64,000 nt of DNA from Paraspadella gotoi (Eukaryota; Animalia; Chaetognatha): assembly GCA_051294375.1 (NCBI GenBank), contig CM119267.1:20089476-20153475 (forward strand). The letters run 5' to 3'. Position 1 is the stretch's first letter; every line of letters starts with the position of its first letter. A program made the position numbers and the translations under genes. The notes below the pieces were generated by a model. The model saw only the letters and a list, made by a program, of their open reading frames with translations, was not told the DNA's origin and searched no databases. Positions 1-56,151 of this stretch are shown here, piece after piece.

Positions 1-3000
1 AGCAATGGGAGAGAAGAGAGGAAAGGGGAAAGGAGGAAAGGGGGAGGAGGGAAGAAGGAGAGGAGCAAGGGGGAGGAGGATGAGAGGGAAGAGAGAGAAT
101 AGGGTGAAGGAGCGGGAGAAGAGCTGAAAAGAGAAGATTGCAGCATAGCACTCATCAAAATGTAAAATGTCTGATTGCGCCGTTTACTTTATCGGGGAAA
201 AAACTACATAATAAAACATTTTGTTTCAGGCGTCGAGCCTCTTGTAAATTATTATCTTTCGCAACGAAATAGAAAGATACGAAAAGGAGTTCAAAACATT
301 TGACATGGATAAAAATAATTGTGAATTCTAAAATCAATATTTTACGAAAAATTAAAAGTACTAAGAAGTTTAAATCTAAGCTCCGAAAGGAATAGTTTCA
401 CTAATTTTCCTTTTACATAACGATGACCATTAAATTAATCGGCTCTCTTTGTTTTTCCTTCTCCCCACCAACCTCGATCTGAAGTAATAAGCGTGACCAG
501 GGCGGGCGTTTTGGCCTTCCAAGAAGTCTCGCATGCCGAGTCTTGTTGGAGCAGACGATTATCTTGTCCAATCGAAGGCAGAGGTTTGAGTAACGTCTGC
601 AGTAGAGTGTGCTCGGGGCCTCACATTCCACTGCAATGGAGAGAAGTATAAATTAATATTATCTTTAAAGACTTAGGAAACGTCTATAATAACCAAATTA
701 TAAGTCGATAATTTAGGATCAGGAATAGGTTTAAAAGTTAAAATATCAACTAAGAATTTATAAAATTTTAACTAAAAAAAATATCCAGAGAGCTGGGTTG
801 ACGAACTCAAGATACGAAAAACTTGTAAATAACTAACATTTTGTAGTGTTCTCTGAGTTTACGTGTCGTTGGACAGAAATGCGGGAAAACACGCATCGAC
901 ATCGAGTAATTGCGTCCGCCTGAAGAAATGACATGAGAATTGACGAGTTAACGTAATCATGATCGAAAACAAACATATTCTTATTTTTTTCTTCGAGCAA
1001 ACAGAGATACCCGAACTGCACTTATTGCTTCGCTCGGTGAACTTTGGTCATCGTTTATCCTCCATCAGAGAGAGTCGACGTGCTCCTTAAGACGGCCTTG
1101 GATGTGACTCGATCACGTCCAGGACCTGTAGAAAGGAAATACAATGCTTTCGAGCGTAGGGGTATTGCTTGGTAGTATAGTGTTGAACGCACTTAGCGTA
1201 AAGAATGAAGTGAAAAATAAAACATGATTGATAATACCGGGTACTTGCTTAGACCCGTGACAAGAGACAAGTATTATTGTTATGAAGGTTTCAGTGATAG
1301 GACGTTGCAGATGCATAAGGCAGTCCACTGAAGCGCTTCGGATCAGCGTACATCATGTTAAGCGGGTTAGCGCCCCCGTCCCTGCTACTGCAGACGGACC
1401 AGAAGAGCGCACGGCTAGAACCCGACCTCTTGGTTTTGGGAGAGCGGAATGTACTTGCTCCGGCACAAAAATGGGCCGTGATGAACGGTTAGGTGGTTTT
1501 TATTCCACAATACATCCCTCCCGTAGAATGTCTGTTTGCGTTCTCAGTGAATATGTTTTGTTGGTGAAAGTGCATCACGCAAGCTTTGAGGCAGTGTGCT
1601 GATGTGTTGTGGACGGAAGTGCATCGCCAGGTTGAGGCATGTCGCCTGAAATTGTTTGGGTTGTTGCTGTGTGTTCGGAGTCGGGCTTCAACCAATGAAG
1701 AGCAGTAAATTATTGTTATGAGTTAGTGATAGAACGATTCATATAAGCGAGTCCTGAGCTTCGATGCAGGTGTAGCATCATAGTTACAGGCGGTTAAGCG
1801 CCGGTTACGTGGCGAGACGAGACACCGGCTAGAACCCGGCACCTTTTGGTTGGGTAGCGAAATGACTGTCCTCGCGAATGGCCTTGATAACGGTTGGTGG
1901 ATTTTATTCACATGGGACAAAAAAAAGAGATTCCAAAAAGCACAAAATGTACAAGGTGTGTGTAATCGACCGCGGATCCGGATCCATGTCTGTAGTCCGG
2001 CCTTGGGGGCATGTAAGTTGCAATGCAATCGCGGAGCTACATGTCCTACTCAGTTTTTCTGGGCTCTCGTGGGAAAGGTAGTTTCTTGACGACATGGGCC
2101 GACGGCGTAGGCCACAAGGCTTTTGAAGTGTTAAAAGTGACTGTGCGGCGGAGGTTCTGCTCTGTTACAGCCTAGATTTTTTATGTGGTTGATCGAATAT
2201 TGATAGCAATTACACGAAAAAAAAAAAAGATCAACAAGGTAAAATTTTAATTGAAAAAAAAAAGTTTTTATAATTCTCCCGTTTAATACCAGAAGAAAGG
2301 TAAAATGAATGTAGTAATTTATTAAAAAATTTAGAAGTAACATCTGAATTATTAGATAAATAAAGAATATTGTTTAAAAAAAGAAAGCATATATGATTGT
2401 AATAATAATATACGATTAGAAATACATAAACTTCATAAAATTATTAAAATAATTAAAATATGAAAAATAAAAAAATAGTGAAAACAGTGATTGCATCTTT
2501 AATAAAAGACTGGTGCCCACCAAAAGAATAGCGGGTGATGATGATACATGTTATAGATCGGGCGAGCGGCGTCGCCGAAAGTCGTCGGTGACGTAGGAGG
2601 CATCTTGTCGATCACGCGAGAGATCACGTAGTTGTTTAGGGGTTTGATCGTTGAAAAAAAAGAAGCCAAGAGCATATTTTTTTTTTTGTTTTTCAATAGA
2701 ATTTTATGATTTTTTTATTTCTAAGCAATCAGAAAGATTTTTAATTGGAATGAATAGAAAATTTAATCTTATATTTTTTTATATATTAAATGGATTTTTA
2801 AATTTGCAAATTTTATAATATTAAATTTCTAAAGTTCAATATCGGACGATTTTTCTTTAGCTCACGTCTCACCTATTTTGAGTCAGTTTAGAACATTAGC
2901 TCCCCACCCGCGCTACGAAAAGAGCTACTTGATAGGGTCGCCGACAATTAGATGCCCCTTTGTGCATTTGACCTGCAGAGACCAGAGGCTTACCGAATAG

Positions 3001-3630
3001 GATTCTTAAATTCACAAAAATTAAAAATCGAAAGGGAGGAAAAAAAAAAGAGAAACGGATTACTGAATAAGAAGATCAACGGCGAATTTGTTAACTCGAT
3101 TCAAATAAATGATTTTGGTTACAGATCGACCTCTTCTTCGCTCTCAACACTTTCAACTCCTTTGTTTTCATCGTTATGATACAGTAGTCCACTAGTCAGT
3201 ATAGCATTCTTGTCTGAACGGTATAGTGAGTAAACAGGCCAGCGGGATAAATACTTTGTTTATTGACATATCAAGACTAACGATTATTTCCGATCGGTAT
3301 TTTCATATGTCGTCAGTCCTTTAATGGGCATATGTTTTACGCATTGTCTGCTATTCTTGTTGCTCTAATAGTCCGCAGCTCGCGACCCCCTTTAAATCGC
3401 ATTTTAAATCTAGTCCTAAAATTCCTACCCTGTCTCAAACTTGTCCTTACTTTGACATCGTCGCGGGACGAGGGTGGACCATTTGACGAAAGTAAGACTT
3501 GACGCTCTGACTGATTGTCGGGTCGGCCTCAGATTCGTGAAGACGTCGAGGGAGGTCGCCACTTTACTGTCGAAATCGGATTGAGACTTTAATCCTCATT
3601 CGCATATTGCAGTAACTATCAAACAGAGCT
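1..3630. repeat. Noisy direct duplicate of 11139-14160 (middle exons of the M13 peptidase gene); probable second haplotype or assembly artefact
   Basis: Collinear throughout with 11139-14160 (e.g. the VNAYYFRS exon near 470-630 vs 11590-11750), differing mostly by scattered 1-bp indels typical of raw long reads. Confidence 0.85.
1258..1914 (-). mobile_element. Full-length TRIM, family 1 (LTR - ~180 bp internal - LTR)
   Basis: Two noisy copies of the 234-bp repeat (1258-1512 and 1696-1914). On the minus strand the 5' LTR end CTCTTCA is followed by T-TGGTTGAAGCCCGAC (PBS-like, 1680-1694). GGGAGGGA (PPT, 1515-1522) plus TG precedes the 3' LTR. Confidence 0.75.
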
Positions 3631-6600
3631 CGGAATATTCGCTAAATTCAAACATACATTGGAACAAGTGAATGGATTCCAATTTTTATTAAATAAACTT
3701 AATTTACCCCCAGAGGGCGTTCCGCTATGCGACGCAGGCTTCAATGGAGTCGCCATCTTGTGATAGGGAGCCATCACGTCGAAGACGTTGATGTGCATCG
3801 GAGGAACGATCCTGCGGATCTGGCGCGGGAATGATCAATAGATTGGTTGACTTACTGAATGTTTGATTAACGGATTTAATAATTGAATCATTGATGGATG
3901 GATGGATTATATACAATATATATATATCTATAATATATATATATACAAAAAAGAGAGGAGATTGAAGCCGAAACGACGAAAGGACGAAAAACGACGGTGA
4001 AGATGACGGCAAAAGACGAACTCATAAACACTGTCAATGATTTTTTTATTATAAAAACTTTTTTGACATAGTCGTAATAAACTTTCTTTTTCGTTGTTAT
4101 GTGTATTCAGAGGCAATTTTGTTCCTTCACCACATCTGACCACTAATTCTTTCTAACTCTGTGTGGGAAACTTTGCCCTAATCACTCTCTCTTTCTCTGT
4201 AGAGAACAGGCCCGACAGACACGACGCAAATGATTGACGGACGAAGGACGGAGAGAGCGAGTTCGTTATGACCCAGTTGACGGCGGACTGAAAATTGACC
4301 GTACGACTCATTCGCACTCGCTCTTCTTTCTCTCTCTCTTACCTGTTTCTCGCGGCCCTTTCTCTCTAATAATTTAGCTTGTAAAAACTGAAACCTATAT
4401 TGCCTATACAGATTTAATATAAAGCGAGTGAGATAGAGATAAGAGGAGAAAGAAAAACATAAAATTATAAATAAAATCAAACCATGCCATTTCAATTTTA
4501 TTATCAATTCCAAATTTCGAATGTCAGTGCGCCTGCAGACGTATTTGTGCTGGTCGACTTTTAGGAACTCAAATGATTCCAGAAGCAAAGAAACGAAGAC
4601 GACGACCAGAACTCTTTGTACTCTGTACCCTTAAGTGCGCCGATAGTACGGTAGTGGGTTTTTCTGTTTTGAAAAAATTGATTAAGAATTAAATCGTTAT
4701 TCATTCATCTGTTTACTAACTTTACAATAGCATTTCAGTGTCAAAAAGCGGCATATTAATCGTTGAAATTTGTCCCAGTTTTTTCCGTACGATGTTGAGT
4801 TTCCATACACTTTCCGTCTGGGCGCACTTCGTAAGTTCTGACTATTTTTTTTTTCTCAAAAACAAAATTTTTTAAAAAAAAATCAGGAATACGATAAAAA
4901 TTTAAGGTATGAACAAATTTTAAAATTCAAGTTTCTTTTAAGTCAAATCAATTAAGTTAAGATCAAAGTCATAACCCGCCAACAATTAGTACAGTATACA
5001 GAAGAAGGGAAGCGCTCTTTATGCTTTCTCTGAAAATTCAATCTGTTGTGAAGCAAGAGTCAAAGGAGAACCGGAAAGCATATTTCAGGGGTCATGACAA
5101 AATGTTTACAAAATAAATTAACATCCATTGTTCGATTTTTAAGAGGGATTGTGGTTTTTTTTTCTGTACTTTCCTGTGCGTTGATCTGAAAATATAATAC
5201 CACTTATTCAAAATCCTATGTATTAAAAAAAGAGGCGCCAGACGCAGAATTCAGCTNNNNNNNNNNNNNNNNNNNNNNNNNTTCTGCATTAAAAAATAAA
5301 AATTCGAAATTCATGGAAAAAATGACTTCCGAAGTGAAAGTAAGAGAATGAAGGGTATCAGTATTTAGGGGAGATCAATTAAAACATTTTCCAATAAATA
5401 TCTTGTCCTTGTTCGAATTTCAACAAGGAGATGGGACTTTTTTCTCCACTTTCCCGCGCGAAGAAAAATTAATGACTACTACCATTCAAATTCCTTTAAT
5501 GATAGACCCTTAAGCTTATGATATCATTTTTATCACTGGGTCCCCTTAAGAGCGGAAAAGTTAGTTAAGGTAAGAATATAAGCGTTTCCGCCCATTGATA
5601 CTTTTGATATAAAGCTCGATGCAAAATCATGCGGATGATATAAAGAACCATTTAGCATTTTTAATTTCTTATGGGCAAAAAAAATAAAAATCTCAGTTAA
5701 ATCTTTTATTTATAAAATTTTTAATCTCCAAAATCTCATTCCGTATTTTGGCTCGCGATATAAGCGTTAAGAACTGTTCATGTTGTTTGTTTAGCCATGG
5801 AGGGCTGTTGAGTGTTGACAGTGTATCGTGCGAACTGCGAGGAGAAAGTAGCGTCGCACGAAATTCCCTTTTCTCGAAGAAGAAAAGAATGGAGCAGGGA
5901 ATTTGGGTGAGGTAAGGGAGAGGTAAGGGAGAAACTAGGGTTTAAAGCTTTATTGGAGATCGATAGTAACTGTAAATTGCCTAAATGAAAATAATTTTAC
6001 AAGCAAATTTTTCTATCTGAAAAGAAGAAAACGAGCTTTTAAACTCTTGACGGTCCTTGTGCGCTCTCTCAATAAGAGCGCCCTGAAAAGGTACCGCAGA
6101 ATAATCCATACTATTTTAATCTTGGAAATAATTTTTTGGCATCTATATACCAGAGTCCGCACTACCAGGTCTCGAACCCTAGATGCAACACGCCAAAGTT
6201 CCTCTAGCCACGACAATGAGCCAAACTGGACCAAAGGAGAAAAGGTAAGGAGGGTTATTACGGACGGGATTTCATTCTTTTTTTTTTGTTGGACACGCGA
6301 ATCGCGAAGGAAAATCCGAGAAAAGTAAAAGAAGTAAAAAGAAAAGGAGGAGGAGGAGGAGGAAGAGGAGGAAATAAGAAGGCTGCCAAGAAGGCTGTCA
6401 AGTCAAGAATAGAGAAAGAAAACAAATGGGATAACTGTTGAAAGTCAACAGCTAACTGTTCACTGTTAACTTCTGATTGATTCGTAAAAAATACGCGCGA
6501 CATATTGATGAGTTGTATATTGATATTTTAAATATTGCTTTGTTGAAAGGTTCATGAGTCTTGAAATCTAAATCTCGACGGCGGAGGCGATTAAAAAAAA

Positions 6601-7935: not shown

Positions 7936-8773
7936 TCTCGTCGTTCAACCTCGCAACAAGTGATTGGCGCCATCCTCGTCTCCAGAATCTGCATGGCCGC
8001 CATTTTGTCGCAGCTCCGCCTGTAGGCCTGCAGCACTTGAACGGCCTGAAGTGAGGAAGGGTTAGTTTTGGTGAGGTTAACAACGTAGTAATGGATATGT
8101 TAATATGTTAATATTTCTGAATATTTTATTTTATGGAAGGTCATTAAAAAATTTGAAAGTTAACATGAAACAAAGACTAGATTGAGGCGCCTCACGTCCT
8201 TCAACGTTCAGCCAATCCCATTGGCTCAGAGGGGGAATGCACCATCCCAGGCGTTGCGTTCAATCCACAGTTCTAACGACTTCCCTCTGCATTGGCAAAG
8301 TGAGGGTCGGAGGCCCCCCAAAGTCAATGGTCATCAAAAGCAACTTGACTGTTGCCATAAGAATTTATTTACATCCGGAAATTATCCGTATTTACATATT
8401 CCATATTATAAATAATCGTAATTAATTAAAGTTCAATAAAAAAAAGCCAAAAAAAGAGATACTATAACGCTTTTCCCATAGTTCATCTCGCCAATCAGTT
8501 AGATGCCATGCCACTCGGAACATCTAACTTCTAAGTCAATCTTGCCCTTTTTTGATAAGGAAATCCCTACAGTTATTTCAAACCAACTTTCGACAGTCAA
8601 TTGCACAAGTCAAATCCTCCAACTCGCTCATTCTCGCACTCGCTACAGTACATCCTCGCCTGCGCTCCGGTGAAGTCGCCCTTGGAGTAGTAGAGATTGT
8701 CCAGCTGCTTGAGACATGAGCTGCTCTCCTGTCGCACGGAGGCGATCACCTTCTGGAATTGCTCGTCCCTCAT
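6884..8773 (-). CDS. DUF4476-domain protein resembling the PROSER1 N-terminus, with a Pro/Tyr-rich tail; 4 exons (8773-8660, 8045-7950, 7682-7370, ~7122-6884)
   Basis: Spliced translation MRDEQFQKVIASVRQESSSCLKQLDNLYYSKGDFTGAQ/AVQVLQAYRRSCDKMAAMQILETRMAPITCCE/VKYILLAIPFPRQRLQALRHLIRAIVD... aligns by eye to PROSER1 (MDKKSFEMVLDEIRK...GYFSSEQVVDLL...[22 protein letters not shown]). Exon phases are compatible. The last exon needs one frameshift to reach the stop at 6884. Confidence 0.7.
8188..8362 (+). mobile_element. Family 2 LTR remnant with intact A/B boxes and deleted twister core
   Basis: TGGCTCAGAGG (A box, 8222-8232), GTTCAATCC (B box, 8258-8266), then GGGTCGGAGGCCCCC and GTTGCCATAA shared with 42324-42534 and 39362-39458. 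Confidence 0.7.
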
Positions 8774-9568: not shown

Positions 9569-12500
9569 CTACCAAATGACGCATCGCTTTTCCGGCGCCA
9601 TTTTACTTCCGGTTCGGCAACCGAACGCGTCCTGGAATTGCGGCATGAGCGACGGCGGCGCCATAGTCCGTACGGATCCAGGGGCGTGGGGATCGGTCTT
9701 GATGCCAGATTCGACCGCCTCTGGTCGCGTCTTTTGGCACCAAACCTACGAGTGGTTGAGGTTGGGGAGGAAATGTTATATGCTAGAAATAATTACAAAT
9801 ACGATTTTAATTAAACAATGCATATTGTGTATATTCGTATTTAAAATTAATTTAAATTAAATTATAAGTATTACTCCGATGATCATTTGTCAACCTGGCC
9901 GTATGCGACGAAAAATGCCTGATCGACATCTAGCGGTACTCCCGGGAGTTGTTCCTCCTCGCCGGCCCCGGATTCTTTCCGACGGCGCAACCATCTCCGG
10001 CGGTATGCGTCGTAAGCGAGGCCGAGACCACCCGTGTCGGCGATGTTCTCACCCTGAGTAAGTTCCCCACGAACCTGCGGGGTTTAATCAACGAATTTTT
10101 CGATTTTTTTTTTTCTGCTTTAAAAAAATAAGTTTCGAATCCGTTTTTATGATTTAAAGGACTTGTTACTACAAAAATTCTCAACTGGCCGGTTAGCTCA
10201 GTTGGTTAGAGCGTGGTGCTAATAACGCTAAGGTCGAGGGTTCGAGCCCCTCACTGGCCATCAAAATATTTTACTTTTCACGTCTTTGGGGGAAAACGGC
10301 AGCAGAATTTTGGCAACTCGTGAAAAATCCGTTTCTCCGGTCAACTGGCACATTACGTATTTTAAAATCCGATCAATTCTAAAATTTTTAGCTGTCAGCT
10401 TGAGAAGAAAAATAATATATTTTTTTTTAGATTATGCTAAGTCAAAGTTTTAAATATGTCAAAGTCAAAGTCTTCACGGGGGGCTTTATAAATATATAGA
10501 ACATACTTGTAAACCGTTGACGTAGTATTTGTCGTAGTAGTCGACCATACATTCCGTCTTCTTCTTGAACGCCACCCACGAATCGTTCGTCCACCAAGTG
10601 TTCATTTTTCCTTCCAAGTCATATTTGGCGCCGCTAGAGGGATCGATTAATCGAGAGTCAGTGATCTTTTGTGTGATCAGTGATAGATTTGTATTATTAC
10701 CTATCGTCAAATGCGTGAGTTAGTTCGTGTCCTATTACGGTCCCGATGGCGGCGTAATTAAAAAACCTGAGGGGGAGGAACAATTAACTTTCATAATACA
10801 TATGATATATTTATACAAGTTCAAATAAACAATTTTAAAATAAACAAAATATCGTATTAAGGGTATAAAAAAATAAATTCAAATGCAGGCAAATGCAAAT
10901 GCAGGCAGTAGACGATGCTGATGGAGGGCATACCAAATATTAAACATATATTACCTATATTTTATATATTTTTATGGAATAAATAAAATTTTTTAACAAT
11001 TATGTGATATACTTTTTGCCTAGATGGTATATTACGGGAGAACTTATAGCTGATCTAACTTGTGCTCACATAGGAAGGTTGAGGTCGTAAAATGGACGCT
11101 GAAGAATTCCTGCCGGAAATACTATGGCGTTCCTGGGGAGCAATGGGGGAGAGAGGAAAGGGGAGAGAGGAAAGGGGAGAGAGGAAAGGGGGAGAGAGAG
11201 GGAAAGAGAGAGAGAAAGAGAGAGAATAGGTGAAGGAGCGGGAGAAGAGCGAAAAAGAGAAATGCAGATTAGCACTCACTCTAAAATGTAAATGTCCTGA
11301 TTGCGCCGTTTATTTATCGGGGCAAAAACTAATTTAATAAAAACATTTTTTTCAGGCGGCGAGGCCTCTTGGTAACATTATTTTTCGCAACGAATAAAAA
11401 CTACGAAAAGGATTCAAAAATTTGACATGATAAAAGAATTGTGATTCATAAAATCAATATTTACGAAATTTAATAAAAGTACTAAGAAGTTTAAATTAAG
11501 CTCCGAAAGAATAGTTTCCTTTTTTCCTTTTAATAACGATGACCATGAAATTAATTCGGCTGCTCTTTTTTTTCCCCTTCTCCCCCACCAACCTCGATCT
11601 GAAGTAATATGCGTTGACCAGGGCGGCGTTGCCTTCCCAAGAGTCTCGATGCCGAGTCTTGTTGAGCAGACGATTATCTTTGTCCAAATCGAAGGCGAAG
11701 TATTTGAGTAACGTCTGCAGTAGAGTGTCGCTCGGGGTCACATTCCACTGGCAATGGGAGAGAAGTATAAATTAATTATTATCTTTAAAGACTAGAAACA
11801 TCTATAAAACAAAATTATAAGTCGATATTAGAATCAGGAATAGGTTAAAAGTTAGAAAATATCATAAATATTATAAAATTTTAATAAAAAAAAATCCAGA
11901 GAGAGTGGGTTACCAACTCAAGATACGAAAAACTTTGTAAATAAACTTACATTTTGGTAGTGTTCTCTGAGTTTCGTGTCGTTGAGGACGAAATCGGGAT
12001 AACCGATCGACTCGATAATTGCGTCCGCCTGAAATGATGACGAATTGACGAGTTAACGTAATCATGATCGAAAACAAAATATTCCTTTTTTTTTTTCGAC
12101 AGAACAGAAGATCACCCGACCCTCACCTTTGCTTTCGCTCTGACTTTGGTCTCTTTATCCATCCAGTCGAGAGCGTCGACGTGCTCCTTGAAGACGGCCT
12201 TGATGTCCTCGATCAACTCCAGGACCTTAGGAAAGGAATACAATCTTTCAGCGTAGGGTACTCTGTATATAGTGTTGGAACATTAGCGTAAAAAATAAGC
12301 GAAAATAAATGATTGATAAATCGGGACATTGCTTAGACCTGAAGAGACAGTAATTATTGTTATGAGTTAGTGATAGAACCGTTCAATATAAGCAGTCCCT
12401 GAGCTTCGGATCAGGCTGTAACATCATGTTACAGGCGGGTTAAGCGCCCCGTCCCTCTAAACTGCCAGACGACCACCGGGCTAGAACCCCGGACCTTTGG

Positions 12501-15500
12501 GTTGGGAGGCGAATGACTTGCCTCCGGCACCAATGGCCGCTGATGAACGGTTGGTGGGTTTTATTCCACCATAGACCAAAAAAAAAAAAAAAAAAAAAAG
12601 ATTCCAAAAGCACAAAAATGTTACAAATGGTAAGTAAATCAACCAAGCATCGGTCCATTCCTGTAGTCGGGCATTGCATAAGTTGCAATGCAATACCGGA
12701 CTACATTCCTACTCACGTTTTTCTTGCTCTCTGGCGAAAAGTATTTCTTGACGAACATGGCGCCGACGGCCGTGCCCACAAGGCTCTTCGAAAATTTCAC
12801 GCAAGTGACTTTGCGCGGAGGCTTCTTGGCTCCTGTCACCGCCTAGATTTTATTATGGGTTGTGATATTGTACAAATTACAACGAAAAAAAAAAGATCAA
12901 AAAGGTAAAATTTAATTGAAAAAAAAAGTTTTTATAATTCCTCCCTTTAAACCAAGAAGGTAAAATACAATGTAGTAAATTTATTAAATAAATTTTAGAA
13001 GTAACATAATTGAATTATTAGATAAATAAAATATTTTTAAAAAAGAAAGCAATATATGATTGAATAAATAATATAGATTAAATACTAAAACCTTCATAAA
13101 ATTATTAAAATATTAAAATAGAAAAATAAAAAAATAGTGAAACAAGTAATTTGCAAATTTTCATAAAAACAAGACTGTCACCACCAAAAGAAAGCGGGTG
13201 ATGATGATACCAGGTTATAATCGGCGAGGGCGTCGCGAAAGTCGTCGGTGACGTAGGGCGCCATCTTGTAGATCACGCGAGAGATCACGTAGTTGTTTAG
13301 GGTTCTGGATCGTTGAAAAAAAAAAAGAAGCACAATTTATAATATTAATTTCTAAATTCATATTCGGACGATCTTTTCTTTTAGCTCACGGTCTCACGCT
13401 ATTTTATCCAGTTTAGAACATTGCTCCACCCCACCTCCTCGAAAAGAGCTCTTTAGGGTCGCGACAATATTGCCCTTTGTTCATTTGACTGCAGAACAGA
13501 GGCTTACCGAGATAGGATTTTAAAATTCACAAAATTAAAAATCCGAAAGAGGAAAAAAAAAAAGAAGATTACTGAATAAGAAGATCAACGGCGAATTTGT
13601 TACTCGAATTCAAATAAATGATTTTGGTTACCAAATCGACCTCTCTCGCAGTCGCTCTCTCTCGCTATCACACTTTTCAACTCCTTTTTTTCATCGTTAT
13701 GATACAGTAGTCACTAGTCAGTACTAGCATTCTTGTCTGACGTATAGTGAGTAAACACGGGCCACGGCATATAAGTTTGTTAATTGATATCAAGACTAAC
13801 GATTATTTCCGACTCGGTATTTCTATGTCGTCAGTCCATACTGCATATGTATTTACCATTGTCTAGTCTATTCCTTGGTTGCTCTAAATATCCCAGCTCC
13901 GACTCCCCCCTTTAAATCCGCACTTTTAAATTCTCAGTCTAAAATTCCTACCCTCGTCTCAAAACTTCGTCCTTACTTGACATCCGTCGCGGCGACGAGG
14001 TCGACCAGTTTGACGAAGTAAGACTTGACGCTCATGATGATGTCGGAGTCGGCCTCCAGATTCGTGAAGACGTCGAGGAGGTCGCCCCACTTTACCTGTG
14101 GAAATCGGATTGAGACTTTAATCTCATTCGCATATTGTAGTAATTATCAGACAGCTCGGTTACGCGCGAAGGAGAGATATTTTGGACTTGGGCGTACTTT
14201 TAAAAAGACTTTTAAAAAGACAGACGGAGTGAAGACAGACTGCCAACTTACGAATGTGAAATTTGATTTAAGATCGGCGAATGGAAATTTGTTGTAACTC
14301 TTTGTCGGATCTCGCTGCTCTGGGTCGTGGGGGAGCGGCGTGATCTGGAGTAGGAAAGGGATGGTTGATAATAATGACGGGGGAATCAAAAAATCACTCG
14401 GTCGCCGATAGTAGTGACAATTTATAATTTTATGGTGGACTAAAATCCACCAACCGTTCATCAGCGGCCATTGGTGCCGGAGGCAAGTCATTCGCCTCCC
14501 AACCCAAAGGTCCGGGGTTCTAGCCCGGTGGTCGCCTGGCAGTTAAGAGGGACGGGGCGCTTAACCCGCCTGTAACATGGTGTTACAGCCTGATCCGAAG
14601 CTCAGGGACTGTTTATATTGAACGGTTCTATCACTAACACATAATAATAATTACTGTCTCTTCACTTGCAATTTTTCTTCTGAAAATAAAACTCACGTTG
14701 GCGATTTTGACTTCGAAATCCCAGATGATCTTCATGAATTCCTCGGCGTCGGTGTCGTTCAGCCCCATCAACGTCCCGAGGCGTTGAGTGTAGTTGCGGA
14801 AGCCGACGCAACGGGTGCTGTTCGGTTCCATGTAGTATTCGGGGGAGTTGAGATGAAGACCATCCGGTGATATCTGGATGAGGGGGACGGGGAATATTTG
14901 CTGAGATGATATATATTTGATGAAAAAGGGCAGCAAGCAGCGCACTGTGCGCAGCGTGCTCACTGTAAATTAAAAAATAGTCATCATTATCGAACTCTCG
15001 GCCCGGCGACTATTTTCAGGGTATGGACGATCCTTTTGCGCAAAACAGCAATTTTTCGACACAATATTCCCACTCGACACCCTTACTCTCCACAACTGAG
15101 TCCACAACCGCGCCCACAACCGCGCCCACACTCGACTCACGTGCAGACGATTTCGCGTGGGTTCCTTCCCGTCGTCGCCCACGTAGTAGACAAAGAAGGG
15201 TGAGGCGCCGTAATCGAAGATGACGCTTTTGATGGCGGCGTCGAAATTCCACGACGCGCTGGTCCACGCCGATTTTCCGCGGGCGGCGTCGTAGCTCCAT
15301 CCGCCGAGGCGGGCGATGGCCTCTTCCAACTGTGAGGAGTGTGAGAGAGTTGGTGAGATGAGGGATAGATGTGAAGGGGTGAAGATATGCATGATATTAT
15401 TGGTACAAGTATAACAATTGTTCATTCATTTAATAAATAAGCTAACTTGCCCCAGACTTTGTACAGGCTTTGGTGGTTTAAGGCCTCACATCACTCTTAC

Positions 15501-16256
15501 AAGGATGAGGGAAAGACAAGGAAAGAGAGGAAGATAAAAGGAGGGAGAGGGAGTGAGTTAAAGAGTGAAGAAAAAAAACAAAAAAGTAAAGAAAAACGAA
15601 AGGAGATCAGGAATTTCAAATGAAATTTATTTAAATCAAATCAAGATGAAATTGAACGAAAAGAAATAAAACAATTTTGTTCCCTTAGACAAATCCGACC
15701 ACATTGATGCCCGGTGCACTTTTGAGGCACTTCTTAAAAAGAATATCGTACAATAATATAATCATATTGGTACCAATTTCATGATTGTATAATATACAAT
15801 GTATATCCCTCCCACCACTTTACTACTTTAAATCCCCAATCCATAGCCAACCATAGTCGTTCCCTCCTTGTCCATCTTTTCCGTATCCATGCACTGACGG
15901 TAGACGGTCTTGCAAATGTTGTTCGGCTCGTGGATGTCGTTGTTTTCCACGTCGACCTCGAGCATCTGCTGGAGTCGGTCGTCCGTCCGCTTGACGATGA
16001 CGTCGAAGTTGCCCCAGCTCACTTGGTCGTCGGGAATCTCGTTGCGCGACATCCATCCTGGGAAAAAAGATAAGGTGAGGTAAGGGCGGGAAAATTATAA
16101 GAAAAATAACTTGGAGAAACGAGACCGAGGGTGAGTAACCTATAAAAGAGTTTTAATGGTTAAGATAACTTTAATACACCTTACTAATATCACTCATTTA
16201 CTTAGCTCACTCTCTTCATGAACTCTTTCAAAAAAAAGTCAATCTCTGTCTGTCTG

Positions 16257-16306
<50 letters not shown>

Positions 16307-17159
16307 CACCTCCGCAAGAGTATTCGTAAAAGTCTTCGCAAGGATCGGCGGAGAAATTGATCTTAGCGCCGATCATTCCCGCCGCCTCGAAACAGTCGGG
16401 CGTCATGCATGTCGCCGGCCGTGTTCGGAAGTAATCCGCTGAACAAATTAAAAATTTAAAAAAAAAAACATTTAATATTACATATTTAACGTAGATGGTT
16501 GTCCAAAACGAAACTTTGAATTGAATAAAAGCACATCCAAAAATGTATTGTTGATATCCCGTGAGCCAGAATGGATGGCACAAAGTACTCAGAAACTAAT
16601 TAATATAAAAGTGAACTTATTGAATGTAAGTTTACCTAAGTAAGAAATTGGTACAACCAATACAATAATTATCCATTTAATAAATTAATTATCTTGCCTT
16701 ACAAGAAAATAACATAGGAGGACCCTGCGAGCTTTCAATCACAGTCCAGTATATGAACTCACAGAGTACCTGGCTTCCAACGAAGTGGTAAAATATTTTT
16801 CTATAAACTATTTCACTCGTGTAAAAGGCCCCGCTCCCGCAAGCTTTTCGTGACTGAAACTTGAGAGCAAGGAACTTTCAATCAATCAATCACTTTCAAC
16901 GAGACTCACATTTCAATGAGATCACTATGAGGACGACGCAGAGCGCCGTGCAGAGAGCGAGTAGGACGAAGGCGGCGATCTTGAAGAAGTTCTTGGCCTC
17001 TCGTCCTCCGTTCGGCTTCGCTTCCTCCTCGCCGACGCTGCGAACGGAAAGAAAAACGTGACGCGACTCTGCCGGCGAATCTACGGGCGACTCTTCGATC
17101 GACGGCGACGAAACGGGCGTCAAATTCGGGGCGCGGTGACGGACCACGCTTTGATACAT
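9569..17159 (-). CDS. M13 family zinc metallopeptidase (neprilysin / endothelin-converting-enzyme-like), multi-exon type II membrane protein
   Basis: N-terminal TM (IAAFVLLALCTALCVVLIVISL), ADPCEDFYEYSCGGW, VNAYY, NYAAIGTVIGHELTHAFDD (HExxH, ~10705-10765), GENIADTGG (~10020-10050), C-terminal DPHAPGSVR...CVIW*. Middle exons carry indels that look like sequencing noise. Confidence 0.95.
10187..10260 (+). tRNA. tRNA-Ile (anticodon AAT), antisense within an intron of the M13 peptidase gene
   Basis: GGCCGGTTAGCTCAGTTGGTTAGAGCGTGGTGCTAATAACGCTAAGGTCGAGGGTTCGAGCCCCTCACTGGCCA: complete cloverleaf with A/B boxes and T-runs just downstream. Confidence 0.95.
12340..12573 (-). mobile_element. Family 1 solo LTR (234 bp) with 4-bp TSD GACC
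   Basis: gacc|TGAAGAGAC...CCACCATA|gacc on the plus strand. Near-identical to 14431-14664 and 46262-46495. Confidence 0.85.
14431..14664 (+). mobile_element. Family 1 solo LTR (234 bp): tRNA-Gly-like head plus type P5 twister motif
   Basis: TATGGTGGAC...CTCTTCA. The tRNA-like part is GGCCATTGGTGCCGGAGG...TCGCCTCCCAA...CCGGGGTTCTAGCCCGG, and the twister motif lies at 14539-14612. No clean TSD here. Confidence 0.85.
14539..14612 (+). ncRNA. Candidate twister ribozyme, circularly permuted type P5 (family 1)
   Basis: GCAGT-TAA-GAGG-GA-CGGG-GCGCT-TAA-CCC-GC-[CTGTAACA TGG TGTTACAG]-[CCTGA TCCG AAGC TCAGG]-G-ACTGT. T1 is CGGG/TCCG, T2 is GC/GC, P5 is GCAGT/ACTGY. Confidence 0.65.
15446..15503 (-). 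ncRNA. Candidate minimal type P5 twister ribozyme (family 3), sense strand in an M13 peptidase intron
   Basis: CTTG-TAA-GAGT-GA-TGTG-AGGCCT-TAA-ACC-AC-CAAAG-CCTG-TACA-AAGT-CTGG-GG-CAAG. T1 TGTG/TACA and T2 AC/GT are compensatory relative to the other families. Confidence 0.6.
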
Positions 17160-26254: not shown

Positions 26255-29200
26255 GAGAGGATTAATAAATGAAAAGCGAAAATATTTCTCAAAATTATTC
26301 CTCAGAAATAAGAATTATTATCCCGGTTCCGCACCAGGGATAGTTCAGTGCCACCTGGACGTGGGTGCCGCGCCAGTTCCGCGCCAGTTCCGCGCCTGCT
26401 CTGATTCAGGTCCGCGACAATTTAGAATGAGGTGCATGTTTGCTTTAGCGCTAATTGCTATTTCGTTAAGTTATTTAAATTTAGTTGACATTTCAAAAAA
26501 TCCTCTCGTCTTCAGATTTTACTCTTAACTAACCAACACTGTGCAGTGTGCAGTGTGCAGTGTGCAGTGTGCAGTCAATTGCTTTAGAGGCGATCGATCG
26601 ACGATAACCATTGCCATTTCGAATTCCCATCCACCGAATTATAATTGCTCGTTCTCAACTGAATCCCTAATCTACCCTATCTAGACGTCTAGTGTCTAAT
26701 ATCATTTTTCGAATTCTAAGTAACAAAACAGAGCTTGCGTTCCATCGCAGTATCCAAATGCTCTAATCACCGCTTCTAGGTCATGCCTCTCGTCCGTTCA
26801 CTTTCACGTTTTGTTCTTCTTTCACAACCCGACATTTCTGGAAAATCGAGAATCCAGATTCTGACCAGAAAAAAAAAATTGCGTCTCGTAAAAAGAAGAA
26901 TCGCGGAATCCGAAAGATTTTTTGATTCGGAAGATGAAAGGTCTTACATCCGGGGAAGTAGGCGTAAAGATCTTACTTTGGGGGGACGGTGATTGGTGGC
27001 GGTGAGTATGGTAAGGGCGGTGAGCACTGAGCACTGAGCAGTGAGATGTGAAAAACAAGGAAAGAAGAGAAAGGAAAAAAATAAGAGAATCGTAATAATG
27101 ATACAATAAAAAAAAAAACAACACTGACTTCCTATTCCCAAAATGAGTTATTAGATATAATGATAAGTAAAAAATTTTTAAGAAAGCAATATATATATAT
27201 TTATAGAATATAGATTAAAAGGTAAATCTTTCATAAAATATAAAAATAAAAAAATAAAAAATAGTGAAACAAGTAATTTGAAAATTTTCATATTGGTTAT
27301 ATTGGTTGTACCAATTTCATAGGGAAGACCAAGAAACGAAATTTACAATTACATAGTAGAAAAGGAAAAAATTAAAAAAATGAATGCTAAAAAATATTAA
27401 TAATACAGTTAATAATTGAAAAATAGAAATAACTTGTATAAATAAAAATAAATATTAAGACTTTATGAAATTATCTCCGGAAAGAGGGGGGGGGGTTGGC
27501 GAAGAATCTTCGATGGAGGAAGAAGATCTTTCCTTCAAAATTATTCAAATGTTGTTGACGCTGCACCCCGAGCTTAAAGCAACGCAGGGAAAAAAAAGAC
27601 AACTTTATTTGGATTAATAAAAAAAATATTTAATAAATTCGATGAATAATATAATTTTATCTGGATAGGCGAAATTAAACAACAAATATACCAAAGGAAA
27701 AAAAATTAATAATTAAAACGATCTTTTTAAATAATATTTTTAAAATATGATAAATTTAGATCAAAAGTTTGATAGAACCCAACAACACCCAAGACTCGCC
27801 GTGCTCAAGGAAGAAAACAGGAGTTTCGCGGCGAAAATTCCTACGAATTAGAAAATAAATTAAGTTGAACGAAATAAATTTAACGATGATTTGGACTTTT
27901 ATGGTTGGGAATCTTTTCTCCGCGCGCCCAGTTGTCCTTTTCATGGTCCGAAGCGGACATCTTTTTTTTAAAAATAATTTTTGCAATTATATTTTCTACC
28001 TACATAGACGACACTTACGACTCCCCGGTCGATGGTTAATAATTATTATTGATCATGAAGCGGAAAAGGACGAAAAACAAGTTATTTAAATTAGTTAATT
28101 GTTATATTGGATTTCAATGTTTTAAAACGAGTTGTTGATAAGTAAAGAGTGACGATGATTGCTCTTAATCTTATAAATAATTTTAAACTTTAAAGTTAAA
28201 CGCGTGACAGGGAAACCTCACAAATTGATGGCGGCTTTTCAAAGCTGGAATTCAGAAGAAGAAAAATTTGGTTAATTCTTTGTGTTTTTTTTTTTCCGCC
28301 GCACTGCGTCGAAATCGCCGCGTGGTCTCGCGCCACCTGGGATGTTCGAGGCGGAGCATTCTCGGCGGCGGCTGTCGCTGCCGCTGACGCTGCTCCGCTC
28401 CGGTCGTTGTTGATTTCGTATTTTTGTTGGAGTCTTCTAACAAATAGGGAAAAATTTCTATGTGGCCACAAAGTATAAACAATTAAACATTCTGAAAAAC
28501 CGCCAAAGACTGCCGAAAATATTGAAAGGACAAAACTAGCACCAAAAACACTGCAAAAACAACGTCACCTACAAAGAAGAAGACGATTGCAAATTGTGGA
28601 AGGGGGCAGTAAACTCTGTTTTTCGCTAATAAAGAAAAGGTCGAACAGATTAAGATTTACGAGTCTTTTATGGTTTTATATCCGTCAATAGAAATTACTT
28701 GCAAAGTATTTTGCGTTTCTCACTGATTATTTGTATTTCGTAAGATTCAATTAGTTTATGAAGAGGTTGTGAGGGATGTACCACCTGGCAGTAATTAGAG
28801 AAAGGACAGGTGAAGAAAGAGTTATTTAGTAAAACTAAAAGTTTAAATTTTTTTTTGTGACAACTGTTCATTTGTTTTTTCATCGGATGGTGAAGTCGCT
28901 TCTTGGACGATCTTAACGACATCTAGCATTCCGTATAAGTATATATATATAGCAAAACCAAAAAACAAAGGAATTTTTTAAATTTTCTTAACAATATTTT
29001 TTTTCGGTCAATGTTTATTTCACTTATTAGTTTAAACTAATGAATATTTTTCTCTTTTGAGATTGATTACTGGAACAGATTCACTCTCTGTTTAGTGTTT
29101 AGTTCTCGTCGGCATCGTTTTCATTGTCCAGATCAAAACTTATGCGTAAATGTTTCTGTAAAATTTAGTATGTACGTATGGTTGTAATAAAAAAAATAAA

Positions 29201-29618: not shown

Positions 29619-30700
29619 ATGGAGCAGAGTTTCCGCGAAAGTCACGTGATCGACGTCCACAGAGAGGACGCCAAGCAACAGTCTATGGAACTCGAGCTTA
29701 TGTTGAAGGAAACCAACGACAACAACAACAGAAACGATAATCGAGGAAGTCAGTTTTTTTTTTGTTTTTTTTTTCTTCTTTTTTTTCTCATTTCTATAAA
29801 AGAATTTCATTGTGCTCACGCTGACCTACCCCACTGGTGATTGTGAAACTGTTATGGTCATGCTGCTTGAACACAGGCTGAACAATTGAGCAATGAATCG
29901 ATTTCGAGATTCAGCCGGGAATATTTTCTTTTGCGTTTTCAGGGAATTTCTACAAGGATGGTGTGAATGTTAACCAGGATGGTAAGTTTTTTTATACTAG
30001 CATAGCATTATATTTGAAAAAAAAGTAACATAAAAGCAGTTATATACATTATAACATTATAAACATATAAGCCCTATTGGAAAACAGGTTGTTTCGCTAT
30101 AAATATCATAATGCTAACACTTCAACTCTTAACTATTGACTCTTAACTAAACAAAAAAAATAAAAAAAAAATAAAAAAAAAAAACTAAAAAAAAAATTTA
30201 AAAAAAATTTTAAAAATAAAAAAATTAAAGCAAAAATAAAATAAAATAAAATAAAATATAAAAATTCAAAATCAAAAATATCTAAATCTAAAAACAAAAA
30301 AACTTTTAAAAAATTTTAAAAAAAACATAAAAAAATGCCCTCACCAAAAAAAAACAAAAAACAAAACAAAACAAAACAAACCCTGGCAGAGGAAGAAGCC
30401 ATTGATGAGCAACCTAAGAAGGACGGCGAACCGACGGCCAAACGGAAGAAAATCAAAGGCTGCGCCATCGCCGACATCGTCATGGGCGTTCTCTTTATCG
30501 TCTTCGGCTGCTTCTTGGCGCCCATCATTGCCATCGTCATGGGCATCGTTGCCATCTGCACCAAAAACGACGACAAGGCCTACGTCTTCGCCGCCGTCGG
30601 ACTGGGATTCGCAATCGTCTCGGTCATTGTAGGGATCGTCGTCATCGCCCTCTTGGTCGCCATGGCCTCTGTATTCGATACGTTTTTCGGGTGGGCGTAG
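29619..30700 (+). CDS. Small membrane protein with two to three hydrophobic segments (dispanin/DUF4190-like), 2 exons
   Basis: Exon 2 encodes GCAIADIVMGVLFIVFGCFLAPIIAIVMGIVAICTKNDDKAYVFAAVGLGFAIVSVIVGIVVIALL. It is a clear paralog of 46738-48022. Confidence 0.7.
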
Positions 30701-30711
30701 TAAGGTAAGAC

Positions 30712-37530: not shown

Positions 37531-37767
37531 AGAAGAGACAGTTTATAATAGTTATGTGTTAATGACAAGAACCGTTCAATATAAAGCAGTCCTGAGCTTC
37601 GGATCAGACTGCAACAACATGTTACAGCGGGTTAAGCGCCCCGTCCATCTTAACTGCTAGCAGCAACACGCGAGCTAGAATCCGGACCTTTGGGTTGGGA
37701 GGCGAATGACTTGGCCTCCGGCACCATGGCCGCTGATGAACGGATTAGTCGATTTTAATCCACTATA
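37531..37767 (-). mobile_element. Family 1 solo LTR (diverged or noisy)
   Basis: Collinear with the 234-bp consensus. Confidence 0.8.
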
Positions 37768-49688: not shown

Positions 49689-49720
<32 letters not shown>

Positions 49721-51845
49721 GAGAAAGGGGGGGGGAATCACGTGAGAATATGAATAAAAAGTGATCATGTGAAAATGGAAAAATATACTCCAAAGGTCTT
49801 CCTGTTACTCTAAAACGGGCAATTAGAATTGATAAATTTCACTAAACGTATTGCACAATGTATAGTTTAATGGCGATTGGTAAGAAACGTGAGATATTTT
49901 AGAAATATTTAGGCTTACTCTGTGGAGCGAGCTTCGAATTTTCATCTTTTATTTCTACATTCTCTTAATTATTCGAGGTTTTTTAAAGGACAAGATTTTC
50001 AAGTTTTCCCTTTATTTCTCGTTCCTCATTTCAGTTCATCCGTTTTCCCTCATTTTTCAGAGACGACGACGACGAATAAGACGACGACTTTGTGAGTTTT
50101 AATCTATTCGGCCTACGCGATCCAGAAGCTCCACTCGCAAGGTGCACCCAAGAAGGAAGCAAAAAAGATGGTGATGAAGCTGGAAACATATGTTGGAATG
50201 AGTTCGCCTTGAACATATTAAAAATATTAACCCAAAAACAAACAAACAAGGAGAAAAGATATCAGATTGTTTGCGTTATAGCACGTCGGGAAAAAATTGG
50301 ATACAACCAATATAAATTATCCATTCATTTAATAAATAAGATATCCTGCCCCTGAACTTTGGACAGGTCCTGCAAGTTTTAAATCAAGACTCTGTGTGCG
50401 ATCTTTCAACATTCACACATTCACGAAACATTCCATTCAGTCAGTTCAACAGCCACATCACATGATGCAGGCGTTGTTGTTCCATCCACAGTCCTACGCT
50501 TTCCTCTGCGTTGGAAAAGCGAGACGGTCTAGGGTAAACCGCGCCAAACCCACTTTTTGTTTTGTTTTTTAGATATTTTATTTAATACAGTGAAAGGATG
50601 ACGAGGGTGGTAATGTCGCGTCGTTGCCAATCAGCGTGATCATTGTTTTTCCGATGAGACGAAGGCGAGACCATCTGGATTTCTTGGTCCGGCTCTCTCG
50701 CAAATCCCATTGAACACTCGTCGAGGACGCCCAAGCGCAGGCAGAGGGGCGCACCTGAGGAAAGAGTCACGAATATTTTTTGAGCCAACAAAAGGGAATC
50801 GAGGGGCTTGACTCAAGTTCGTTTCAACTACATCCCCTCTGTGATAAGGCTTAAGTGGCTGAAGAATGACTATCCGTAACTTCTTTAACCTCTAGCAGCT
50901 ATGGAAGCGGGTCTGGGCTTGAACCAGGCTTTGAGGGTTTTCACGCGCGCCAGGCGGCTTACGGCCGTCCTACGCTTCGCAGAGGGTAGGTACGGGTTGG
51001 GATTGAACCAGTACTGTGGTCTGAGCTGATAGTTTACTCATGAGCCACCGGGTCACAAACTGAAAAGTTGTCATTGATTCTTAGGCGGGGTGAACTAGGC
51101 AATGCGCCGGACTACATGCCCCAGATTGTAACCACCCTGCACTGCTTCCAGTGGAGGGAGGGGAGCAATGCTTCAGCTAGACCAAGAGCTGGAATCAGAA
51201 GGTTGGTAATACGCTCGACAGGATGGGCTCACGGCAGTGTGGATAAGGCGCTAGTGGGCTGAAGATGACTATTCGTAATTCTTTACTCCTCTAGCACTAT
51301 GGAAAGGGTCCTGGGCTTGGAACCAGAGATCTGAGGGTATTTCGCCGCCCAAGGCGGCTTACGGCGGTCTCGCCGCTTCCGACAGGGTGGTACCGGGTTT
51401 TGGTGATTGAACCCAGTACTAGTCGGTCATGAGCTGATGGTTTACTCAATGGAGCCACGGTCACAACTGAAAGTGTCCATTGATTCTAGGCGGGGGTGAA
51501 CCTAGGCGAATGCCCGATCTATCAAAATCACCGCTGAAAACAAGCTACAATCCACAACAACAACAACGGAAACTCCTTTCGCGCGCCTCCATTTTTCATC
51601 CTCACCAGTTGCAGATGCATCCGCAGCAGGTGTATTGTTCCAGATGGCGATGATGATGCTGGGCCCATGAGGCTTTGGCCTTGAACTCGCCCTCCGATCC
51701 GCGTCTGATCGTTCAGGTCGGGAGGCGTGGTCTTGTATTCCAGGGACCGCTTGGTGGCGCGGAAGGCTGCTCGTGTTCGCCTCTGCGTCAGGAGAAAATG
51801 GTTTAAAAATAAGATGTAGTTTAGCGTCGATACGGTCGTCATTGG
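48620..51845 (-). repeat. Left arm of a ~3-kb inverted duplication (partner ~54195-57250) with noisy copies of the CD225-like gene and the lipocalin 5' exons
   Basis: 49115-49300 is the reverse complement of 56500-56690, 50030-50800 of 54550-55800, and 51520-51845 of 54195-54500. Confidence 0.85.
50840..51521 (-). mobile_element. Full-length TRIM, family 4 (LTRs 50840-51114 and 51238-51521, ~120-bp internal)
   Basis: Two ~280-bp direct repeats absent from the homologous arm (~54500-54520). On the minus strand the LTR reads TAG...ATC(C)ACA, the PBS-like TGCCGTGA lies at 51229-51236, and GGGGCA+TG precedes the 3' LTR. The head has TGGCTC.. and GGGTTCAATC, followed by a twister motif with CTGG TTCC AAGC CCAG. 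Confidence 0.7.
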
Positions 51846-54246: not shown

Positions 54247-55720
54247 GCGAACACGAAGCAGCCTTCCGCGCCACCAAGCGGTCCCGTGGAATACAAGACC
54301 ACGCCTCCCGACCTGAACGATCAGACGCGGATCGAGGCGGTCAAGGCCAAAGCCTCATGGGCCATCATCATCGCCATCTTGGAACAATACACCTGCTGCG
54401 GATGCATCTGCAACTGGTGAGGATGAAAAAGTGGAGGCGCGAAAGGAGTTGTCGTTGTTGTTGTTGTGGATGTGGTAGCGTTGTTTTCAGCGGTGATTTT
54501 GGAAGAGTGAGGCCGAGGGGATTGTATTGAACTGAACTTTGAGTCAAACTCGATTCCCTTTTGTTTGGCTCAAAATATATTCGTGACTCTTTCCTCAGGT
54601 GCGCCCTCTGCTGCGCTTGGGGCGTCCTCGACGAGTGTCAATGGGATTTGGAGAGAGCGGACAAGAAAGCCAAGATGGTCTCCGCCTTCGTCGTCATCGG
54701 AACAATGATCACGTGAGTTGGCAACGACGCACATTACCACCCTCGTCATCCTTTCACTTGTATTAAATAAATATCTAAAAAAACAAAACAAAAAAAGTGG
54801 GTTTTGGCGCGGTTACCCTAGGACGGTCTCGCTTTTCCAACGCAGAGGAAAGTCGTTAGGACTGTGGATGGAACACAACGCCTGAGTCAATGTGATTGGC
54901 TGAACTGGACTGAATGTGAATGTGTGAATGTGTGAATGTGTGAANNNNNNNNNNNNNNNNNNNNNNNNNNNNNNNNNNNNNNNNNNNNNNNNNNNNNNNN
55001 NNNNNNNNNNNNNNNNNNNNNNNNNNNNNNNNNNNNNNNNNNNNNNNNNNNNNNNNNNNNNNNNNNNNNNNNNNNNNNNNNNNNNNNNNNNNNNNNNNNN
55101 NNNNNNNNNNNNNNNNNNNNNNNNNNNNNNNNNNNNNNNNNNNNNNNNNNNNNNNNNNNNNNNNNNNNNNNNNNNNNNNTTAAATGAATGGATAATTTTT
55201 ATATTGGTTGTATCAATTTTTTCCCGACGTGTATAACGCAAACAATCTGATATCTTTTCTCCTTTGTTTTGTTNNNNNNNNNNGAACACTACGCCTGAGC
55301 CAATGGGATTGGCTGAAAGATGATGGACCTGAATGTGTGAATGTGAGATTGTGTGAATGTGTGAATAGATCGCCACAGAGTCTTGATTTAAAACTTGCAG
55401 GGACCTGTCCAAAGTCAGGGGCAGGATATCTTATTTATTAAATGAATGGATAATTTTTATATTGGTTGTATATATCGTATATATTGTATGTATATATATA
55501 TATATATATATTATATATACATATATTGTATATAACGCAAACAATCTGATCTCTTTTCTCGTTTGTTTTGTTTTGTTTTTTGTTGGTTAATATTTTTTAA
55601 TATGTTAAGGCGACTCTCCAACATTTTTTCCAGCTTCATCACCATCTTTTTTTGCTTCCTTCTTGGGATGGCACCTTGCGAGTGGAGCTTCGTGTGATCG
55701 CGTGGCCGAATAGATTAACT
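54247..55720 (+). CDS. CD225/dispanin-family (IFITM/PRRT/SYNDIG-like) membrane protein; start not resolved
   Basis: Combining both noisy copies gives KASWAIIIAILEQYTCCGCICNW/CALCCAWASSTSVNGDLERADKKAKMVSAFVVIGTMIT, matching the CD225 pattern (CC in the first hydrophobic segment, GD.E.A...+..A). Confidence 0.6.
54806..55367 (-). mobile_element. Family 2 LTR fragments with (ATTCACAC)n expansion, truncated inside the twister motif, spanning a gap
   Basis: Minus strand TATTCACAC...CAGCCAATCCCATTGGCTCAG...GTTCCATCCACAG...GCGAGACCGTCCTAGGGTAACCGCGCC. Confidence 0.6.

Positions 55721-56120: not shown

Positions 56121-56151
<31 letters not shown>

Follow-up and report, generated by a model that had tools for sequence, protein, structure and literature searches.

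The 64,000-nucleotide (nt) stretch of Paraspadella gotoi contig CM119267.1 analysed here (the window) is intron-rich eukaryotic DNA with an M13 peptidase gene on its minus strand. On balance, 58 bases within an intron of this gene (15446-15503) are best read from their sequence as a diverged copy of a type-P5 twister-like motif. The motif is part of a very high-copy repeat, whose copies have a common end ~50 bases away. The repeat is likely the 3' end of a Penelope-like element, and its RNA is predicted to cut itself at U15480/A15479.

Read along the minus strand from 15503 to 15446, the parts follow in type-P5 order: a P5 arm, the P2 3' strand, GA, the 3' strand of pseudoknot T1, a linker, UAA, the P2 5' strand, the 5' strand of pseudoknot T2, a 5-nt junction, the P4-L4 hairpin, and the other P5 arm (Table 1). 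Every invariant base is present (UAA, GA, and the G-U..AA..C of P4/L4). T1 forms three Watson-Crick pairs (15490-15488 with 15460-15462, ACA/TGT), and T2 forms two (15474-15473 with 15456-15457, AC/GT). P4 consists of two C-G pairs, a U.U mismatch, and then the invariant G-C pair. The U.A, A.A, and A.G partners are in place, and all partners given in the available part of a crystal-structure review are present (PMC5408937, excerpt). Judged by its letters, the motif is real and of twister type, and it carries the hallmarks of a self-cutting RNA. An earlier, sequence-only reading (the initial annotation) had proposed a 58-nt twister motif on the sense strand of a peptidase intron, and the order, invariant bases, both pseudoknots, and a spliced M13 intron bear it out. 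It had correctly noted a T-T mismatch in P4 (U.U at 15465/15454) and CAAAG in place of P3, which is the 5-nt junction at 15468-15472. Its four-pair T1 (TGTG/TACA) keeps three pairs, whereas the fourth is, by crystal structures, the U.A pair inside L4 (PMC5408937, excerpt). Two features are absent from it: P1 is not a hairpin, and the 3-nt P2 strand has a C.A mismatch or a bulged A.

Several measures tell against so close an identification. The best Rfam ribozyme match of the 81-nt stretch is Twister-P5 (RF02684), at 9.1 bits and an E-value of 7.8, below the gathering score of 37.6 bits; the model check suggested in the initial annotation thus returns the right class at too low a score. At gathering level, Rfam finds tRNA alone in the window, and E-value scans of 401 nt and of the whole window returned no twister. 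The twister fold of the 58-mer differs from its minimum-energy fold (z -0.14). In place of a four-base-pair (bp) P2 there is a 3-nt 5' strand with one imperfect pair, family-wide. A chance likeness of a repeat to the twister consensus would agree with the low score, the energy result, and the behaviour of a relaxed descriptor with T1 and T2 letters free. The single window match of that descriptor is this site, and 2,370 shuffled windows gave 245 loci (0.10 loci per window; 14 in the compact form), rates that flatter the motif because the descriptors were written after it was seen. A simulation of 2.29e9 positions (~17,900 windows) produced 86 compact matches, three with a 4-bp P5, which is this copy's grade. 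When many windows are scanned, a single copy is therefore suggestive but does not decide the matter. What speaks against chance is the family: none of the simulated positions gave a match with a 7-bp P5 or with perfect P4 and P5, the family majority improves the fold, and its letters match a natural subtype. We regard chance as scarcely credible and descent of the repeat family from a twister as very probable.

Natural twisters were drawn from viral contigs by pattern scans followed by pairing checks. Canonical type-P1 twisters were fully paired in 84 of 94 parsed loci (95 returned). T2 in the AC/GT form belongs to 20 phage loci, 16 of them fully paired and 18 matching twister-P1 at E<=1.6e-5; one has the same 5-nt junction. 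T1 as CCA/TGG was fully paired in 82 of 105 phage loci, 15 of which also have AC/GT. This copy's own T1 form, ACA/TGT, was fully paired in none of 26 phage matches. Five phage loci have a P2 strand of 3 nt; Rfam places three of them above its cut-off as type-P5 twisters whose P2 has 3 bp, and one of the three has the same P2 5' strand as this copy. Mutational scanning of a rice twister found most pseudoknot pairs swappable and many P1, P2, and P4 mismatches tolerated (PMC5113685; PMC9901934, excerpt). At the level of sequence, then, T2 AC/GT, T1 CCA/TGG, the CAAAG junction, and a 3-bp P2 are ordinary natural variants, and the core of the family belongs to a natural twister subtype, one of its P2 pairs being imperfect.

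Two side observations come from the same phage material. The loci L057, L058, L060, and L059 are natural 3-bp-P2 twisters, though the review suggests, in its available part, that P2 length is unchangeable (PMC5408937, excerpt). Short P2 as a feature fatal to twister identity was considered and rejected; the parser accepted one of the five loci, and Rfam then placed three others as P5-type. In phage contigs L025 and L031, two type-P1 twisters stand in direct tandem with a 6-nt linker.

The family form was read from contigs of five runs (three studies) aligned to the region. Summed contig depth at 15462 exceeds the flank 10,965x (X1), 27,213x (X5), and 20,767x (X8) in three DNA runs; this is not a copy number, but it is in keeping with ~five independent pieces across the 64 kb. 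Few sites separate the majority from this copy (15454, 15462, 15488, and 15445). Its letter at 15454 (95.5-99.9%) makes P4 perfect, its letter at 15462 holds 96.2-99.9% of depth, and at 15488 it has one base fewer in 90.5-99.8%. Majority T1 is CCA/TGG with the palindrome directly after it. Majority P5, as deduced from the letter at 15445 and the loose-end majority past 15503, has seven Watson-Crick pairs and a G.U. No other letter of at least 1% is listed at 15465-15503, which makes T2, the short P2, and the palindrome features of the whole family. The sole common variable majority site, 15450 (6-27%), lies in an unpaired junction. By its sequence the majority should fold better than this copy, with a perfect P4, a longer P5, and T1 paired by other letters. 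The initial annotation had made its case depend on other genomic copies preserving the T1 and T2 pairings, and in sequence they do keep both.

This copy differs from the majority on both sides of one T1 pair, with no other paired variants of at least 1%. Non-majority depth at 15462 is so low (783 of 397,314 in X5; 282 of 280,348 in X8) that the T1 form is nearly private to it, and the 3' junction of the 15488 insertion is found in four samples. The double compensation of T1 and T2 that the initial annotation singled out does not hold up as a special adaptation: T2 AC/GT is family-wide and common in phages, and none of the 26 phage matches offers a fully paired parallel for T1 ACA/TGT. The latter is probably decay that happens to pair.

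Pieces of the repeat in the window share one end ~50 nt past the ribozyme, whereas their other ends differ. In X1, depth along the 16.7k copy falls toward the 5' side of the element (333,614 > 76,953 > 12,312 > 1,403 > 95), a gradient that is partly an alignment effect of clipping at an indel and of the 80% floor against a diverged copy. At 15487, depth has dropped to 0.40-0.54 of its value at 15462. The shared 3' ends and the depth falling toward the 5' side fit a retroelement that is truncated at its 5' end, the repeat being its 3' end and the twister lying on its sense RNA. Reverse transcription from the 3' end, stopping early, would leave thousands of scattered truncated tails. Contigs in four runs connect the 5' side of the twister with the upstream part that the 16.7k copy contains, and a few contigs pass from one piece into a further element end. 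The downstream tail does recur where the initial annotation had placed it, but it belongs to the same element rather than to a further repeat family. The 50.3k and 55.4k copies lie inside an inverted duplication (126 gap openings in 1,989 columns) and are probably one locus assembled twice. This copy and the 55.4k copy differ at 8 of 58 shared bases. Part of the ribozyme has been lost internally in two of the three longer window loci (16697-16698 and 55403-55404). One of the core-lacking loci is in a sense intron of the same M13 gene, a hint of selection against active sense copies.

By analogy the carrier is probably Penelope-like. High copy number, 5' truncation, and a shared 3' end are all found, although they are not specific to such elements. 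Naiad elements are high-copy (tens of thousands of 5'-truncated copies) and are described as lacking a canonical hammerhead (PMC8557442, excerpt). A hammerhead core pattern found no match in seven repeat pieces of the window. Two results count against this assignment. Of the window's 113 open reading frames of at least 95 amino acids, 83 were scanned, and none contains a reverse transcriptase, a GIY-YIG, or another transposon domain, although truncated copies are not expected to carry such a frame; and no target-site duplication is evident by eye. The initial annotation had suggested looking for a long terminal repeat (LTR), a primer-binding site, and A/B boxes; by eye, no LTR pair, primer-binding site, or polypurine tract was seen in the window fragments. 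A tRNA-derived short interspersed element (SINE) is not supported as carrier, with no A box and one lone B-like match in the three twister-bearing pieces. An impression, from short frames, of a GIY-YIG-like end in the upstream repeat was not supported. A search with the family core pattern gave three metagenome and nine viral loci, none carrying the twister 5' half. With the family architecture and a 6-nt P1, four prokaryote loci were found, none paired, and no viral ones, so that these searches gave no homologue beyond this organism.

The unusual feature of the family is its P1, a loop-less 6-nt palindrome and not a hairpin. The palindrome (15481-15486) has no listed variant of at least 1%, and its self-duplex is computed at -9.1 kcal/mol against +5.6 kcal/mol for the hairpin. 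All 12 fully paired phage P5 twisters that were found have P1 hairpins, with linkers of 14-22 nt (linkers of 3-20 nt were admitted by the main pattern). In Penelope-like elements, the hammerheads carry a very small palindromic helix III and cut as dimers in tandem repeats (PMC4209133; PMC6765202, excerpt). By analogy, it is plausible that the family twister is built like these palindromic hammerheads and cuts best as a pair of copies. Two copies in a tandem, pseudo-LTR-like transcript would join their palindromes and so supply P1 for both; multimeric element RNA would then be cut efficiently, and lone copies only weakly. A more far-reaching version, which we offer tentatively and consider rather doubtful, is that a Penelope-like lineage swapped its hammerhead for an obligate dimeric 'double twister' in thousands of copies, and that sense-intron copies survive mainly since lone or damaged ones cannot cut. 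No description of a dimeric palindromic twister, or of a twister in Naiad or Penelope-like elements, was found in the literature searched, Roth et al. 2014 and all supplements being outside that search; the twister lists of that paper and of PMC8501958 may include related eukaryotic forms of type P5.

The dimer proposal faces objections of its own. A 6-nt palindrome has a chance of ~2-6% by our arithmetic, and no true tandem of two cores was seen in the window or the contigs. What resembles a tandem at 54.8-55.5k includes a second copy of its flank as well as N gaps, and looks like an assembly duplicate. A composite at 55.3-55.5k was considered as a long-P1 twister and rejected, with a weak P2 and a form outside the descriptor. 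Three other copies of the repeat upstream in this composite have one fixed start and end before the twister, and are probably a separate element. Further, P1 is dispensable in split constructs, with a near wild-type rate, so a monomer may cut (PMC5408937, excerpt; PMC5113685). Such a monomer, in which P1 has shrunk to a single A-U pair closing a 4-nt loop or is absent and the palindrome is incidental, would account for the missing tandem cores, and mismatches in P1, P2, and P4 are often tolerated (PMC5113685). It sits poorly with the two computed energies, with a linker shorter than in any phage P5 twister found, and with the lack of palindrome variants of at least 1%. We consider monomer cleavage unlikely.

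Variants of 1-4% in X1 look like unpaired decay, and no covariation between copies was seen, a further point on the negative side. This would agree with the whole family being a non-autonomous derivative with a dead inherited ribozyme, spread without cleavage as a DNA-type element or a passive tail. The family-wide imperfect P2, the lack of a P1 hairpin, and the loss of part of the core in two of three longer window loci point the same way, as does the short hairpin at the element end; short terminal hairpins occur in some DNA elements. Yet the majority keeps every invariant base and pairs better than this copy, a 3-bp P2 is natural, and the depth polarity fits 5' truncation. We consider a dead family quite unlikely, and a twister on retroelement RNA remains our preferred reading.

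The host gene has Pfam matches in 4 of 19 frames, and the exons flanking the motif-bearing intron match Peptidase_M13_N. The intron is 522 nt long with GT..AG ends, and a contig of run X9 joins the exons across it, as splicing would; that X9 is RNA is a guess, and its repeat depth is not readable as expression. An X1 contig over 15458-16236 has no deviating letters at the locus, so neither T1 strand is owed to faulty assembly. The mismatched base of P4, 15454, lies outside all listed locus-specific contigs. A protein search with one exon gave no match. A tRNA-Ile (AAT) at 10187-10260 (+) lies within the M13 gene region, on the strand opposite to the gene.

The initial annotation had suggested co-transcriptional cutting of the peptidase pre-mRNA. 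In this form, the present copy would be an active, compensated ribozyme that tunes peptidase output as the intronic CPEB3 ribozyme does. Its sense orientation, a predicted cut site 150 nt upstream of the 3' splice site, a T1 kept paired through two changes, and the insertion in four samples suit that idea, most T1 pairs are swappable in vitro (PMC5113685), and there is a precedent (PMC10274809, excerpt). Against this, the copy is worse than the majority: one pair of P4 and half of the P5 pairs are gone, and an additional base separating T1 from the palindrome shifts the P1 register by one. Its T1 form was fully paired in none of the 26 phage matches, and one contig joins the exons across the intron. 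Since the core is missing from the gene's other sense copy (16.7k), this copy has no cis partner, and among thousands of copies one accidental compensation is expected. Cutting of the M13 pre-mRNA is thus unsupported, and an active copy is very unlikely. No pile-up of ends at the cut site was seen among the listed contigs, which cannot reveal RNA ends. From its sequence, this copy is probably a slightly decayed passenger that cuts slowly or not at all and leaves the peptidase mRNA unaffected. Its placement in the peptidase intron is probably incidental.

Table 1. Positions of the twister-like motif, its parts, related repeat copies, and other repeats in the window
Feature	Position	Strand	Basis
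Type-P5 twister-like motif; sole copy in window with whole core	15446..15503	-	Descriptor, Rfam, pairing check
P5 5' arm, 4 bp in this copy	15500..15503	-	Pairs with 15446-15449
P2 3' strand	15493..15496	-	Pairing check
Invariant GA: 15492, predicted general-base G; 15491, A of A.A pair	15491..15492	-	Roles from PMC5408937 (excerpt)
T1 3' strand; 15488 is an insertion nearly private to this copy	15488..15490	-	Contigs and pairing
Loop-less 6-nt palindrome replacing P1	15481..15486	-	Energies and contig variants
UAA; predicted cut between U15480 and A15479	15478..15480	-	Rfam alignment; site by analogy, PMC8501958 (excerpt)
P2 5' strand, 3 nt: two Watson-Crick pairs and C.A, or third pair around bulged A	15475..15477	-	Pairing check
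T2 5' strand (AC), pairs with 15457-15456	15473..15474	-	Pairing check
5-nt junction (CAAAG) replacing P3	15468..15472	-	Same five letters in phage twister L038
P4-L4 hairpin with T1 5' strand (15462-15460), AA, T2 3' strand; departs from family majority at U.U 15465/15454 and letter 15462	15452..15467	-	Contigs and pairing
P5 3' arm	15446..15449	-	Pairing check
AT-rich 3' tail of element, short terminal hairpin; end common to window copies	15398..15445	-	Window comparison, contigs
Host intron (GT..AG), M13 peptidase gene	15330..15851	-	Pfam and X9 contig
Short piece of element's 3' end, opposite orientation, same intron	15760..15785	+	Read by eye
Second sense-strand intronic copy: tail, both P5 arms, upstream part; core deleted	16640..16790	-	Window comparison, contigs
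Tail-only copy	27292..27322	+	Window comparison
P4-L4 and tail, ribozyme 5' half missing; probably same locus as 55.4k copy	50298..50400	-	Window comparison
Tail piece beside N gap; probably scaffolding duplicate of 55.4k copy	55180..55225	+	Window comparison
Majority-type P4-L4 (perfect P4) and tail, ribozyme 5' half missing	55375..55470	+	Window comparison
~235-bp repeat copies	12339-12573, 14431-14664, 46262-46496, 37532-37770, 38260-38499, 1696-1909	-, +, +, -, -, -	
Third repeat copies	42326-42546, 8170-8360, 39310-39457, 54805-54944, 55284-55375, 50400-50546	+, -, -, +, +, -	

The window holds two further repeats. A young repeat of ~235 bp has 85-98% identity among five copies, with a sixth noisier; A- and B-box-like motifs stand 44 bases apart in the two copies scanned, and from its sequence it is probably a tRNA-derived SINE. 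A third, strongly folded repeat (221 nt at -92 kcal/mol, a raw energy uncorrected by shuffling) starts at one and the same 5' point in three copies, carries a 3' hairpin, and adjoins the twister repeat at 50.4k/55.3k. Two large duplications (1-3633 vs 11139-14159; 48645-51835 vs 54192-57235) show 80-91% identity with gap openings as many as mismatches, one of them inverted, and are probably noisy long-read gap fill rather than real paralogues. Two small membrane-protein frames, 30320-30697 (+) and 46926-47192 (+), have weak DUF4190 matches, and a tandem array with a period of ~66 bases occupies 30708-31206.

To our knowledge, the function of most eukaryotic twisters is unknown. As a worn copy, this locus alone is of modest importance. 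If the dimer proposal is true, two unrelated ribozyme classes would have arrived by convergence at one dimer-gated design within a single retroelement niche. The proposal would further account for a genome's tolerance of ribozyme copies by the thousand in its sense introns, and for Rfam's failure to find them.

Compared with known systems, the motif is closest in build to the type-P5 twister, for which Roth et al. 2014 is reportedly the source, said also to list eukaryotic twisters. CPEB3, the intronic ribozyme invoked above, belongs to the hepatitis delta virus-like class. With the type-P5 twister (RF02684, clan CL00120; PMC5408937, excerpt) the motif shares strand order, UAA, GA, the L4 pattern, the invariant G-C, T1/T2 pairing, a short junction for P3, and an open P5. 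It differs in its loop-less palindromic P1, its 3-nt P2 5' side, its sub-threshold score, its place in a high-copy eukaryotic repeat, and in that its cleavage is predicted only. Like the CPEB3 ribozyme, it is a self-cleaving-type motif on an intron sense strand, but that ribozyme is conserved and single-copy, whereas this is one diverged copy among thousands (PMC10274809, excerpt). The twister T-variants of Schistosoma mansoni Perere-3 (RTE clade) are also retroelement-borne and number in the hundreds; theirs are type P1 at the element 5' end, with P1 completed by the target site, whereas the present one is type P5 near the 3' end (PMC8501958, excerpt). Truncated RTE twisters are mentioned as unpublished (PMC7761336, excerpt). 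A 5'-end role as in the Schistosoma/RTE twisters does not fit here, because a P5-type cut there would discard half the ribozyme. Naiad/Chlamys Penelope-like elements have the same very high copy number, strong 5' truncation, shared 3' ends, and lack of a canonical hammerhead; the available part of their description mentions no twister, and the likeness lies in the copy pattern, not in an open reading frame or pseudo-LTR (PMC8557442, excerpt). Finally, type I hammerheads in Penelope-like pseudo-LTRs share the internal cut site, a tiny dimer-suited palindromic helix, and thousands of dispersed single motifs from truncated copies (PMC4209133; PMC6765202, excerpt). There the ribozyme is a hammerhead, and the Penelope reading frame and tandem layout are known only there, whereas here the ribozyme class is twister.

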